NCBI GenBank assembly: GCA_013239625.1
Contig: MU053802.1
Span: forward strand, 79,363-143,362
Direction of reading: 5' to 3'
DNA: 64,000 nt
DNA from: Lama guanicoe
Taxonomy: Eukaryota
Part shown: in pieces, positions 412 to 54,094 of the stretch
How the letters are laid out: each line of letters begins with the position of its first letter
Numbering within the stretch: position 1 is the first letter of the stretch
Translations under genes and position numbers: made by a program
Notes under the pieces: model-generated
The model's database searches: none
The model's input: the letters and a program-made list of their open reading frames with translations, nothing else
Told to the model about the DNA's origin: nothing

Positions 412-872
412 GTGGAGGCATAGCAGTAGCCAAGTTTGACTTTTTATTTGTCTGATCCATCCTCTGTCCATTTATCCATCTACCATCCACCCATCCGTCT
501 ACATTTTCAGCTGGCCCAGCAGGCCCCCACCCACCCTCTATCCGTCTCCCCACCCAGCCGTCTGGCAACCTGTTCCTGTGTCCGTCCCGCAATCATCTGT
601 TCCAGCAAGAGCCTGATGCTCTGGGGCAGCCTAGTCCCCGGCCCCCTGCTCCTGAGGTGCCAGTTCCACCACACTACACCCCTAGGGTCATGACCAGGCC
701 GGGGCTCGGGGAACGTATGTCTTCTGGCCAAGAGGCAGGCAGAGCTGTGGTCCCAGGGCCACTGGGCCGGACAGCCCGGACTCCAGGCGCCAGCCCGGCA
801 CTCCGCTCTGAGCTGCGCGGCCGCCCCGAGGGTGGGAACGGCCTGGGCTCGGGGCCCCGCTCACCGCCGCAG

Positions 873-1032
873 AGCCCCGGCCGCCCCGCGGGCTGGCTGT
901 CCTGCCGGCCCCCGCGCACGTCCCCGCGGAGCCGAGGGGCCATGGGAGGTGTCACGTCGCCGTGGTGGGCAAGGGGGCTGACACCAAGCCGCCCCATGAG
1001 GCCAGCCAGATGGACGAGGATGGCATTGAGGG
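873..1032 (+). pseudogene. OTOF: OTOF exon ~12 copy, heavily GC-shifted
   Basis: 160-nt segment between cag and gtgagg. The 3' half reads CHVAVVGKGADTKPPHEASQMDEDGIEG (otoferlin [28 protein letters not shown]); the 5' half keeps its length but is recoded to Pro/Arg/Ala/Gly codons. Confidence 0.85.
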
Positions 1033-4000
1033 GTGAGGCACCCGTCTCCCCGGGCCCCTGGTGATCTGGCCCGGCCCTTCCAGGGGCACAAGGGAGCACC
1101 CGGGGTGGACCTGGCCCAGAAACCGTGCCCTCCCTCTGTCTCTCTCAGCCACACACTCAGACGGCTCAGCTGTCCCTGGAAGGAGCCAGCCCCAGTATCC
1201 ACGGACTCTCCACATGGGACAGAAAGGCCTGAGGCCAGGTGGGCAGGGTTCACAGAGGACAGTCAGGAGTGACAGTCGTTTGACATCCGGACTTCTGTCT
1301 GTGAGAAACTTTGGAAAAAAGGGGCAAATTCCCAGAGCTGCTGGATATTGAGTCTACACCCAGGAGAGCAAAGCCATTTTGTTTTCTGTGCCAATTTTAA
1401 GCAGCTGACAGTGGCTGTTGAGAAGTATTCTAGGACCTTGTCTGAACACAGTGGGAGAAAGTGCTGGGATCCAGTGAGTCATGACTTCGGTGGGCCAGGG
1501 AGGGAGCGTGGTGGCCATGGGTGAGGTTTCTGTGTGGGAGAGAAAAGATGTGATACACAACTAGGAAAGGGGACAGTGTTACCAGGATGGATCTCCCCCT
1601 CTGCAGTTTCACTCCTAGAAGGGAGCCTTAACCTATTTATCATACTCCCGGGAAGGGGCTGTTATTCCCATCTTTCAGGTGAGGAAGCTGAGGCTCAGAG
1701 CACTGGGGAGGTTTGCCCAGGATCCCATGAGAGACCAGGTACTGTCAACTTGAGCATCTTCAGTCCTGGTGTGGTCCTTCTCAGCCGTCCTTCACATGCT
1801 GTCCTGGGCCCCAGGGGTGTGCAGATGCTGAGGCAGGAGTCTGGGCGCCCGGTCTGGCCACCACAGTCCAACTGTATGCGCCGGCAGGGACTTGCTGCTC
1901 CCTGAGGGGGTGCCCCCGAACGCCAGGTCACATATGGTTCTACGTGAAAATTTATTGAGCAGAGGGGCTGCCCCACACAAACACAAGCCCCATGGCCAAT
2001 GTGAAGAAGGCTTTCACTGGTGAGAACAAGGACCTGGTTGACCCCTATGTGCAAGTCATCTTTGCTGGCCAGAAGGGATTGGGGCACAGGCAGCAGGAGG
2101 CTGGGGCATGAGGTGACAGGCACCAGGGTGCAGAGGGATGGTCAAGGGGTCCAGGGGACAGACATGAGGCAGAATCAGAAGCCACCAGACTGGATTTTGA
2201 TCACCTTGGTGCATTCACCTCTGGAAGTGAGGAGAGATGAGAGGAGCTCCAGCTCAGAGGGGCTGGGGGCCAGGCCAGTCTGGGCCTTAGGGATACCTCC
2301 CTGCCCCTAGGTCACAGAGACCAAGAGCTGAAGGGGGGGACACTGTGAGGCAGGAGGGTCTCAGAGGCTGGTCAAGGGGAAGAGTGAGGAGAGGAGCGTG
2401 CACACACACACACATACACACGTGCACAGCTGCCACAAGCCACACATAACACATATATACCCACTCACCCGCAGATACACGCGCTCACACACAAGCAAAC
2501 TCTCACCCCCTCCCACCAGGGCAGGACCTCAGTGCAGAAGAGCAGCTATGAGCCGCTGTGGAATGAGCAGTGGTCTTTACAGACCTGTCCCCCAACTCTG
2601 CAAGTGCATGAAAGTACAGACCCGGGACTTGGACAAGGTCAACGACATGCCCATAGTTGCCCACTTCACTGACCTGCTCAAGGTTTCCAATGATGGAGAC
2701 AAAGGTGAGTAGCAGGAGGCCGGGGGTGTGGGGGTGGGACTGAAGGGGCGGAGTCAATGAGACTCCCACACAGGCCCCCACCATCCCACGCCTCTGCTGG
2801 AGCGGCAGTGGGCTTGCTCAGGGCTTTGCCAACAGCCTCTGCCTCAGGGGAAGGGTGGAAACTCAGGACTCATCTCTGCACAGAGCTTCCTGGGCCTGTC
2901 TGTGCCAGGCTGCCTGGATTCGAAGCCCAGCTGCTCTGACAGAAGCTGAGGCAGAAGTGGGGCTGCACAGGAGGCACTGAGCCAGACCACCCAGGAGGCC
3001 CCTCCTGCACTGACAGCCGTTGGGGGACGGGGGTGACCAAGACTTTCACCCTGTTTGATGTTCTTCCCACTGGATCCGTGGGAGGAGAAGGAAATCCCAG
3101 CATCAGGGGTCCTTCCCTCCATGGGTCGAGGGCTGGCCAAGGGGTAGGACCTCTCCTTTATGGGCCCCCACCTGCCCACCGCAGGCCCGCACAGCATCCC
3201 CGATGTCTTCATCTGGATGATGAGCGATGACAAGCACATGGCCACAGCCCGGTGCATCCCCAGGACCTGCTCTTCTCCATCGTGGGGGAGGAGCTGGGTG
3301 AGGACCGCGCCAGACCAAGACGCTCTTCCTCAAGGTGCCGGAAGGGAAGTCAGATTAGGGGGTGGAGGGGTCCGTGCTTCGTTCAAGGGGTCAGCCTCCC
3401 TTGGAAGGAGTAGCGTGCCCACCCCGGGTCTGGCTGGTCTGAGCTGATGGGGTGCTTAGAGAAGAGGTGGAGAGAGTAGGAATGGCAGAGGGCCCCATCC
3501 CATCCATACTCCTTGGAGCTCTGCTCCCGAACCCACAGCCCAGTGGGATAGCTGTGGAGGGACAGAGGCCCTCTGACCACGGCCTCCTGCAGCCCCCTGC
3601 GCCTTCCTCACCCCACGGGCTCTGGAAGCTGACCCTGTGTTCACCCCCAGCTGCCTCAGAAGCAGGGATTTGGAGTGGTGGGCTGGACAGTGCAAGCCAG
3701 GCTGGAGCCCTGCCTGTGGCTGGGCCACAGCAGGCAGCGCAGGGACTTCCAGTGGGGCCTGCCCTGTGGCTTCGAGGGGGTCCAGGCAGCCCTGGGTTTG
3801 GGCCTGCACTCCCTCCTGCCCAGCAGCCTGGTCTGCATGAGTGAGTGAGGCAGGTTGCAGCCAGGCCCAGGGAAGCCCCTGGCTCCAGCCCTTACCCTGG
3901 GAGAGCGCTGGGGTCACCTGTTCCCAGCCTCCAGGCCTGTACCCCCTGCAGAGAAGCAGGCCTTCCAGCCCCACGCCCTCAGGTACCAGGCTCGGAGCCT

Positions 4001-52769: not shown

Positions 52770-52886
52770 CTATGCAGGCAGCTGCAAACCCCTGTCCCAC
52801 CCAGTTACTGCTGCTGTGAAGCTCAGCCCACATTCTGCTGTCTGCGGAGGTAAGAGCTTCAGGCAATCTGTCCCCACAGAATCTAC
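52770..52886 (-). pseudogene. TLL1: TLL1 exon ~11 copy
   Basis: [35 protein letters not shown], 117 nt; donor reads gc. Confidence 0.9.
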
Positions 52887-54005
52887 CTAAAAGAAATAAA
52901 AGAATAAAGAGAGCCTCCTAAATGTGACTCTATATTCTAACTGCTTTCTGCTTAGCTACAAATTAAATACATAAAACCTGATTTGGTTCCTATCTCTACC
53001 CCCAGTACTAGAGCCATGACCATTACCAAAACACATCACCCTGACATGACCAAAAGAGTTTAATGAAATGTTTTCTTTGGAACATACATACATATATTAC
53101 AAATGGCTTCAGCTAGGCTAAGATACAATGTTCAAGACAGTATTTTCCTTGACCTGACTTATCAATTAGATCAGATCCTTATTTTTCCTTATTTTTAAGC
53201 ATTTCTAGAGATCTCTTGGACTTAAGACTGCTGTCACCTTTAATACAACAGTGTCCATTCAGCAGGTTTTAGATGTTAAGAAAAAATATCTGTATGAAAC
53301 ATAGACATAATTGAGCAAAGCTACTTCAAAAATAAAGGAAAAGATACAATCTCAAAAGAAAAATTCAATAGAGTAGATGCTCAGACACTCACAGCAGCTC
53401 TCACCTTTAAGTAAAACTGAGGGCAACAGTAAAGTGCCTCACACAAGCTAATGGTGTAGTCTGTGGTTACATGTTGGCAGCAGACTTTGTAAGCACCAAA
53501 TCTGAGCTATAACTTACGACACAAACTACAGTTTCTCAGCCACAAAAACCTGCAACACTGTGACATCTTCAGTAAGAGCCAACATCTTTGGTTTAGGAAG
53601 CCAGTGACCAAATGTGTTCCTAACAGCTCATGCTCTAGTGTCTTAGCAAACAAAACACACACACACACACACATACACACACACAATTTATCTGGTTTTC
53701 TCATTAAAACTGATTTTTAAATTAAAAACACAGAGACATGTGATGAGTGGTCACTAAAAGCTTAATGCATGTGAAAGCTATTCTAAACCAGTATGTTCAG
53801 ACAGAAGCACCATCTCATACTTTAAGCTACTTTAAATCAATCATCTATTTATCCATCTGTATTTTTGCTGTGGTTGGAAAAAGGCATAATACAAATGAAA
53901 ATGTTAGTCTCATACATTGTAAACTCTGAGATGACTCTTGAAAGAACTGCCTTCAGACAGGACAGACCATATGCACAGCCACAGAGGGGGCGAATCATCT
54001 CTTAG

Positions 54006-54094
54006 CAAGGAGAGGGGTTTTCTCCAGCACCCATGTTGTCACACCAGCACAAGCTACTTTCGTACAGGTCCACTGCAGTAAAATTTAAAACGAT
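54006..54094 (-). pseudogene. TLL1: TLL1 exon ~10 copy
   Basis: IVLNFTAVDLYESSLCWCD...GCWRK..PLL with EVRD deleted; donor reads ct. Confidence 0.88.

Follow-up and report, generated by a model that had tools for sequence, protein, structure and literature searches.

A probable ancient mosaic segmental duplication of OTOF-DRC1 and TLL1 DNA in a guanaco contig

A stretch of 64,000 nucleotides from Lama guanicoe (assembly GCA_013239625.1, contig MU053802.1, positions 79,363 to 143,362 of the forward strand), hereafter the window, is very probably an ancient mosaic segmental duplication in the camelid genome, the adjacency of its parts being that of the assembly. DNA-level copies of OTOF/DRC1 and TLL1 lie tail-to-tail with introns kept, and the 24-kb OTOF and 12-kb TLL1 segments both retain exon order, splice sites and introns. 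The donor loci are presumably at 2p23 (OTOF/DRC1) and 4q32 (TLL1) in human and thus unlinked; no map position in a camelid emerged from the literature searched. The evidence is best read as an old duplication mosaic at the DNA level, since introns are kept, decay of the two copies is similar and the OTOF-DRC1 end is present in many independent runs. The same evidence upholds an earlier note that had proposed such a mosaic, but does not support its structure of three donors and two junctions, its suggestion of multiple copies or its placement in a pericentromeric, subtelomeric or sex-chromosome region. The two non-retro, disabled genomic copies that it described are confirmed by introns between ordered exons and by stops and frameshifts in both OTOF and TLL1.

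Results

The OTOF copy

The following features were assigned to the OTOF copy.

873..24718, + strand: OTOF duplicate, unprocessed and disabled, covering mouse residues ~349-1977 (tblastn, exon alignments, splice sites, intron homology)
873..1032, + strand: OTOF exon shifted to G/C (77% GC and CpG o/e 0.74 across 770-1,035)
2705..3184, + strand: internal deletion site, OTOF residues ~527-840 missing (tblastn, shuffle-tested alignment)
22241..22419, + strand: first of two alternative terminal exons of OTOF (transmembrane), with a frameshift (tblastn, exon alignment)
23754..23934, + strand: second alternative OTOF terminal exon (tblastn, exon alignment, splice-site check)
24,713, + strand: AATAAA signal closing the OTOF copy

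Mouse otoferlin residues 356-1977 were placed by tblastn at 896 to 23,931 of the plus strand, and the order of the 27 exon starts was fully colinear with the gene (Spearman 1.0). A frameshift-aware alignment of 29 stretches, which excluded one extra exon found by tblastn, revealed 956 of 1,318 residues identical to otoferlin. The same stretches contained 5 stops and ~16 frameshift steps, some of the latter being aligner doubles. Of the 27 acceptors, 26 had AG, and of the 21 donors checked, 17 had GT; the boundaries were set by eye beside the alignment ends, a procedure that biases the counts towards canonical sites. The translated intron flanks matched unnamed exon-plus-intron OTOF reading frames of other genomes, and one OTOF exon was 76-78% identical to its five best database matches. 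A search of the window for residues ~527-840 returned scores of 42-57, about the level of shuffled sequences, compared with 127 for an exon known to be present. The starting exon previously claimed near 590 was not confirmed, with a score of just 30 and 8 of 19 residues identical; for residues 240-349, 27 of 30 shuffles matched or exceeded the score obtained in the window.

With mouse as the reference, the inferred residue-changing steps in the exon at 873..1032 were 17 from A/T to G/C versus 2 from G/C to A/T, in contrast to 103 and 88 in the remaining OTOF exons (Fisher p 0.003). Local bursts of A/T-to-G/C change suggest episodes of GC-biased gene conversion. These bursts indicate recombination, a result that speaks against transposition of the region to the Y chromosome and decay there, an explanation that we regard as very improbable even though non-recombining chromosomes typically gather dead duplicates and retrocopies. 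The main text of a study of the alpaca Y chromosome, which discarded sequences lacking male-specific verification, describes a male-specific region without transposed sequences and does not mention OTOF, TLL1, CASP6, NT5C3 or DRC1 (PMC7830431). No publication combining the alpaca Y chromosome with OTOF was found in the literature searched.

A CASP6 retrocopy inside the OTOF copy

14293..17440, + strand: processed pseudogene of CASP6, the 5' and 3' UTRs both long (Pfam, PDB, target-site duplication)

The sequence matched Pfam PF00656 (E 1e-55) and caspase-6 of the PDB (E 8.5e-162). It comprises 293 contiguous codons with no intron, the CDS (14,604-15,485) showing R64W and a single stop, TAA at codon 128, and is followed by an A-rich tail at ~17,357-17,430. 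A decayed target-site duplication of 16 nt (14,293-14,308 and 17,425-17,440) is identical at 13 of 16 positions, weak taken alone in that 5 of 1,600 unrelated 16-mers reach 12. No GT occurs between 14,277 and 14,308, at the OTOF exon end beside the insertion.

The copy has 17 derived residues in common with a second dromedary caspase-6 (KAB1275487.1, XP_064343087.1). The sequences that encode this second dromedary protein do not exceed 92.1 Mb in length, and those of the parent CASP6 records measure 123.8-136.6 Mb; the dromedary counterpart may be a paralogous copy. The translation from the window was absent from the protein collection searched. Changes in the copy fell at columns at least 90% conserved in 22 of 34 cases, close to the neutral expectation of 63%, versus 6 of 283 among 13 functional mammalian caspase-6 proteins. 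This substitution pattern, which is without purifying selection on the protein, led us to reject a functional CASP6 retrogene. The single disabling lesion compared with ~5 expected is mildly unusual (P ~0.03, with assumed rates). The dromedary counterpart was deposited as 'Caspase-6' yet changes in the fashion of a pseudogene, with the reading frame still open.

The DRC1 tip and the GC step

25404..25460, - strand: DRC1 last coding exon, tail-to-tail with OTOF (PDB match to the DRC1 C-terminus; AG acceptor)
25877..26619, no strand: GC transition zone with the inferred inter-locus junction (change-point analysis, position from the assembly)
27123..27454, no strand: two tandem copies of a 162-nt unit, matching at 161 nt

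The DRC1 exon (25,460-25,404, minus strand) matched PDB entries 9fqr_Qt (E 0.014) and 8j07 (E 0.066). An insensitive search of three frames of 25,461-27,262 returned no second DRC1 exon, and one guessed at 25,560-25,660 received no support from searches. The abrupt fall in GC that had been noticed near 26 kb was borne out by change-point analysis, GC being 55.8% to the left and 34.6% to the right. The position of the change point varied with the interval chosen (25,907 or 26,371), and its support range was 25,877-26,619. A putative 5S-rRNA-like fragment near 26,294 was not confirmed by Rfam.

The abrupt step, the tandem unit 0.5 kb to its right and an adjacency of OTOF-DRC1 with the right-hand DNA that comes from the assembly would fit a chimeric assembly, that is, two real dead copies at separate places merged by the assembler near 26 kb. 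We consider a chimera unlikely. The window is free of N, and the OTOF and TLL1 copies are alike in age, a similarity not expected from a random join. Furthermore, 19 of 24 listed sequencing runs, spanning four organism labels and eight studies, contained 0.59-0.84 of the words of the OTOF-DRC1 end (22,500-27,120). Since a parent diverged by ~10% would leave a few per cent of words, the dead OTOF-DRC1 end exists as such. Twelve listed runs held 0.75-0.84 of the words, above the 0.74 that sits left of 25.9 kb, indicating that DNA of both sides of the junction is present, which concerns presence and not adjacency. A weak search for look-alike windows found none indexed for 1-12,000, 27,460-30,000 or 42,700-54,200.

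The AT-rich middle block

26650..38900, no strand: AT-rich middle block, GC 34.6%, carrying no TLL1 downstream exon
38030..38900, + strand: NT5C3A processed pseudogene, frameshifted (Pfam UMPH-1 in three frames)
10650..11808, - strand: L1-type 3' fragment adjoining a 5'-truncated OTOF exon (self-BLAST)
38920..40200, - strand: L1-type fragment cluster (self-BLAST)

The earlier view of the middle block as one matching neither gene was not confirmed: no OTOF or TLL1 exon was found there by shuffle-controlled alignment, yet GC (34.6 vs 34.8%) and CpG o/e (0.10 vs 0.11) equal those of the TLL1 block. Nor was a second junction at 38.9-40.2 kb, where the L1-type cluster lies, confirmed, the GC being the same on either side and the middle block containing an older NT5C3A retrocopy. 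Pfam searches of 111 frames of at least 42 aa in 26.0-41.65 kb gave one weak match below the cut-off (E 0.0075), and found nothing in the exon-like stretches at 33.25-33.7 kb. The fragment at 10650..11808 matched 32.3-33.0 and 39.3-40.2 kb at 66-78% in self-BLAST. We take this fragment and the cluster at 38920..40200 to be L1, a name that Pfam did not confirm for the translation of the former.

The NT5C3A copy matched NT5C3A of the PDB (E 2.8e-26) with 54 of 98 residues identical by hand count. It is intronless through ~0.9 kb, and its ends show neither a clear tail nor a target-site duplication. Neither this retrocopy nor that of CASP6 figured in the earlier account of the mosaic. The difference from human at 44 of 98 residues, which includes human-camel divergence, is ~2x that of either duplicate and would give the block a longer history than the duplicates. 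Together with the end of TLL1 exons after residue 670, this divergence could be explained if the block were resident acceptor DNA into which OTOF-DRC1 and TLL1 were inserted separately, with no copied cassette. That explanation is also unlikely, as the block has the composition of the TLL1 block, the divergence figure contains that between human and camel, and a donor could equally have carried the old retrocopy along.

The TLL1 copy

41669..54094, - strand: TLL1 duplicate with six exons (residues ~387-670), unprocessed and disabled

The minus-strand exons start near 54,094, 52,887, 51,615, 44,847, 42,958 and 41,802. Compared with pilot whale TLL1, 215 of 273 residues were identical, with 2 stops and 5 frameshift steps. 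Searches for TLL1 past residue 670 (26.0-41.6 kb) and before residue 386 (54.1-64 kb) gave scores of 26-48, compared with shuffle maxima of 36-52. A candidate for residues 730-772 with a score of 48, reached by 0 of 15 shuffles, was dropped since a present exon scores 127. No Pfam match was obtained in 45 of 72 open frames of 54.1-64 kb. The truncation that had been described for both copies thus stands for the inner ends (TLL1 after residue 670, and DRC1) and for the internal OTOF loss of ~527-840, whereas the outer ends may extend past the window.

The copy differed from Camelus ferus TLL1 at 33 of 157 residues. T-E-G is common to the copy and C. ferus, compared with S-E-D in whale, narwhal, musk deer, horse and bear; the copy is without the V specific to C. 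ferus, few residues being compared. The exons of the partial C. ferus TLL1 protein are nearly identical to those of whale and 21% off the window copy. This result is difficult to reconcile with gene loss at a rearrangement breakpoint, by which the window would contain the sole OTOF or TLL1 copies and no duplicates. An intact camelid OTOF was absent among the named database matches, as gene loss would have it; otoferlin loss leaves humans and mice profoundly deaf, and we give gene loss almost no credence.

Age of the duplicates

Amino-acid change in the OTOF and TLL1 copies is similar (~21-22%), and a DNA divergence of ~0.10-0.11 substitutions per site was inferred from the protein differences. 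At ~10% divergence both duplicates would be old, about 20-60 My. The dating is loose, a constant rate taken from the camel / South American split leading to an impossibly old age, whereas a rate quoted in PMC8605555 leads to ~21 My.

Discussion

The OTOF-DRC1 and TLL1 copies have decayed neutrally and, judging by the sequence, the region most likely has neither protein product nor function. The proposed order of events would begin with the NT5C3A retrocopy entering the DNA of the present middle block. Copying of the OTOF-DRC1 and TLL1 segments would have followed in the camelid stem lineage, together with their joining near 25.9-26.6 kb through one or more junctions made by non-allelic break repair or template switching, with exons lost subsequently by deletions and L1 insertions. 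The CASP6 cDNA would have been inserted by the L1 machinery at the OTOF exon end without a splice donor, and the versions of this retrocopy in the genome of the window and in dromedary would have drifted apart thereafter.

A wider reading, which we offer as speculative and rather doubtful, is that the window is the fossil of a camelid duplication hub that predates the camel / llama split and repeatedly exported TLL1-KLHL2 DNA, a neighbourhood that we assume to lie in one human band (4q32), to unlinked loci. The hub reading includes bursts of GC-biased conversion that might have built a CpG island and helped the neutral CASP6 retrocopy to stay open in dromedary, again a tentative suggestion of low probability. 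If true, camelids would be a second mammalian case resembling core duplicons, much older than that of primates, and the hub would provide a neutral record of ectopic exchange sites.

The mosaic is a known type of duplication fossil, apparently undescribed so far for these genes, and it indicates neither a new gene nor a new mechanism. No published camel pseudogene of otoferlin or camel retrogene of caspase-6 was found in the main texts of the literature searched. Among the matches listed, no publication joined camelid segmental duplication with TLL1 and none from the camel or alpaca literature mentioned OTOF. The decayed OTOF, TLL1 and CASP6 copies carry a risk of misleading read mapping and annotation in camelids.

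Processed pseudogenes arise through L1 and are characterized by the absence of introns, a poly(A) tail and a target-site duplication. The CASP6 copy resembles them in its lack of introns, its A-rich tail and the decayed duplication of its target site, and the NT5C3A copy in being intronless. The CASP6 copy departs from the usual pattern in that it lies within a duplicate that is itself dead and unprocessed and that the frame is open in dromedary.

As a whole, the window resembles mammalian mosaic interspersed segmental duplications in which intron-bearing fragments of different loci adjoin, are pseudogenised and show compositional steps; duplicon mosaics of this sort in primate pericentromeric and subtelomeric regions were reportedly treated by Bailey and Eichler in 2006. 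By convention, a segmental duplication is identical to its donor at 90% or more of DNA positions. The window copies differ from the usual ones in their divergence of ~10%, at or past that limit. Mammalian subtelomeric duplications are skewed to interchromosomal events according to a study the main text of which does not mention camels or alpacas (bioRxiv 10.1101/2024.11.22.624925).

A further published comparison is with the pseudogene-rich repetitive blocks of alpaca chromosomes 11, 17 and 36, which, according to the main text of the report, also contain fragmented camelid gene copies ascribed to segmental duplication followed by degeneration (PMC13751797). The genes named there are others (NEK10, ATF5, FMN2, uS3m, actin and ABHD17A), the main text mentioning no OTOF, TLL1, caspase or nucleotidase. 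The blocks are described as multi-copy, mixed with satellites and missing from camel assemblies. Unlike them, the window in itself has no satellite array, the longest of its 13 tandem-repeat rows being 332 nt, and the CASP6 retrocopy has a dromedary counterpart with which the derived residues are held in common. The mosaic provides an old, probably pan-camelid example beside blocks that are reported missing in camels.

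Two disabled duplicates that retain introns

The window is most probably an old, neutral duplication mosaic that carries two retrocopies and belongs to a known kind. The DNA is of mammalian and very probably of camelid origin. The earlier note had proposed disabled, intron-keeping copies of OTOF-DRC1 and TLL1, and exon order, introns, stops and frameshifts bear out both copies. The features are as follows.

2,705 to 3,184, + strand: OTOF residues ~527-840 absent between these positions (tblastn and exon alignment)
10,650-11,808: L1-type fragment adjoining a 5'-truncated OTOF exon
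14,293-17,440: CASP6 retrocopy inside the OTOF copy: no introns, long UTRs, A-rich tail; CDS 14,604-15,485
25,460-25,404, − strand: last exon of DRC1, 3' of the OTOF copy
27,123-27,454: 162-nt unit duplicated in tandem, 161 bases identical
38,030-38,900: NT5C3A copy, intronless and frameshifted
54,094 to 41,669, − strand: TLL1, six exons
61,651-61,780: tRNA-derived SINE, which we take to be camelid Vic-1; tRNA head at 61,651-61,722 confirmed by Rfam

Mouse otoferlin (P0001) was retrieved by one translated exon of the window with 80% identity, and its residues 356-1977 were placed by tblastn on the + strand from 896 to 23,931, with 27 exon starts in perfectly kept gene order. Frameshift-aware alignment of 29 stretches gave 956 identities over 1,318 residues, with 5 stops and 16 frameshift steps; this total takes in a doubtful stretch (580-642) and a second terminal exon scored against the other isoform and omits one exon detected by tblastn. 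With boundaries placed by eye, 26 of 27 acceptors had AG and 17 of 21 donors had GT. The introns match reading frames of other genomes that run from exon into intron (at most 72% over 36 residues), so the OTOF segment is a DNA-level, intron-bearing duplicate. Both alternative terminal exons are present, together with AATAAA at 24,713. Further DRC1 exons were sought with insensitive tests and none was detected. The first 415 nt of the window are CpG-rich (o/e 0.54) and are followed by a (CTAT) array of ~23 copies, which could be another block boundary.

The TLL1 copy is identical to pilot whale TLL1 at 215 of 273 residues and has the residues T-E-G in common with Camelus ferus TLL1. It carries 2 stops and 5 frameshift steps, and its last exon has suffered a deletion. 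Later exons were not found in 26.0-41.6 kb and earlier ones were not found in 54.1-64 kb. The absence of the later exons shows that the copy is 3'-truncated, as had been claimed; the 5' end may be outside the window should the intron before it, ~14 kb in human, be long. A GC-richer stretch within a TLL1 intron (50,460-50,940) resembles the 5' end of L1.

Junction and middle block

The sharp fall in GC content noticed near 26 kb was confirmed: it drops from 55.8% to 34.6%, with the change point at 25,907 or 26,371 according to the interval used (support 25,877-26,619). Within the transition zone an old repeat contains ~42 nt (26,294-26,336) that resemble the 5' end of 5S rRNA, a likeness not confirmed by Rfam. 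The proposed three-part structure with two junctions was not recovered: since the middle block (34.6% GC) and the TLL1 block (34.8%) are equal in GC content and CpG depletion, there is no compositional sign of a second junction. Besides the NT5C3A copy and the 162-nt tandem duplication, the middle block contains L1-type fragments, and among its 111 open frames one had a Pfam match, under its cut-off. It may derive from TLL1 intron or flank, from a third donor or from resident DNA, and the NT5C3A retrocopy may provide a handle on its donor in pig or cattle. The 162-nt tandem duplication may be very recent or an assembly artefact.

Presence of the OTOF-DRC1 copy in sequencing runs was evaluated with 494 words sampled from 22,500-27,120. 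Nineteen of the 24 listed runs carry 0.59-0.84 of the words, three have almost none and two are absent from the index; the carriers span eight studies and four organism labels with similar shares across labels, which would fit the four South American camelids, and one top-scoring run may come from the source sample. Of the 31-letter words, a donor diverged by ~10% would retain just a few per cent; therefore the decayed copy itself is present and exists in many animals. Twelve runs surpass 0.74, the share of words left of 25.9 kb, indicating that DNA from both sides of the junction is present, a result that says nothing on adjacency. It is improbable that the assembler brought two blocks together near 26 kb in a chimeric join.

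The nested CASP6 retrocopy

The CASP6 copy was inserted where an OTOF exon ends. The 32 bases preceding 14,309 contain no GT, which suggests that the OTOF host was already dead at insertion. A 16-nt flanking repeat matches at 13 of 16 positions, weak alone although located as expected.

The copy is nearest to camelid proteins: it differs from the camel and alpaca parents at 30-31 positions and at 21 from a second dromedary caspase-6 protein, P0093 (KAB1275487.1, XP_064343087.1; deposited as 'Caspase-6'), with which it has 17 derived residues in common; private residues number 12 in the window and 9 in dromedary. P0093 sits on sequences no longer than 92.1 Mb and the parent CASP6 on sequences of 123.8-136.6 Mb. 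In dromedary the 293-codon frame is open, with R64, H121 and C163 kept; in the window it is broken by a stop at codon 128 and carries R64W. Of 34 changes, 22 affect conserved columns, which is the neutral rate (63% expected), compared with 6 of 283 in functional proteins, so purifying selection does not maintain the copy as a caspase. Against a purely neutral history is the single disabling lesion where ~5 were expected (P ~0.03, assumed rates), a count biased by the intact dromedary copy having been found because it is intact. The 5' stretch of the copy (14,330-14,620) is 74% GC with a CpG o/e of 0.75.

Changes shared by the two CASP6 copies comprise 10 A/T-to-G/C steps and 2 in reverse. In the OTOF exon at 873-1,032, residue-changing steps number 17 and 2 respectively, compared with 103 and 88 in the rest of the copy (p 0.003; steps counted from inferred ancestral codons with mouse as the reference). 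The excess is probably the result of GC-biased gene conversion. The rewritten exon makes a small CpG-rich patch at 770-1,035.

Age

Converted from protein differences, substitutions per site were 0.27 for the NT5C3A copy versus human, 0.14 for the OTOF copy versus mouse (mouse-camel divergence included), 0.105 for the TLL1 copy versus C. ferus, and 0.048 for the CASP6 copy, with 0.033 between its two copies. One OTOF exon, near-invariant across other mammals, is 76-78% identical in the window (~0.11 by the conversion formula). There is good support for an order with NT5C3A first, OTOF and TLL1 next and CASP6 last. The rate given by PMC8605555 (2.5e-8 per five-year generation) dates the duplicates to ~21 My. 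A constant rate set on the divergence of camels from South American camelids, which PMC13751797 puts at over 11 My, yields at least 70 My; this was rejected because a copy with camel-type residues should be younger. Since the rates disagree, an age of about 20-60 My is given for the duplicates; absolute ages are not well supported.

Comparison with known systems

A literature search that covered main texts found no description of the locus, which thus appears new with these genes, while the duplication-mosaic type is already known. Donor map positions were sought in passages of PMC6371769 and PMC6598621, which gave none. Blocks rich in pseudogenes are reported from alpaca chromosomes 11, 17 and 36 by PMC13751797, whose main text does not name the window's genes; those blocks hold different genes together with satellites and are not represented in camel assemblies. 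An alpaca Y without transposed sequence is reported in PMC7830431, and mammalian subtelomeric duplications are biased to interchromosomal ones according to bioRxiv 10.1101/2024.11.22.624925. Considered apart from criteria of identity, position, copy number and junction, the window behaves like a mosaic interspersed segmental duplication.
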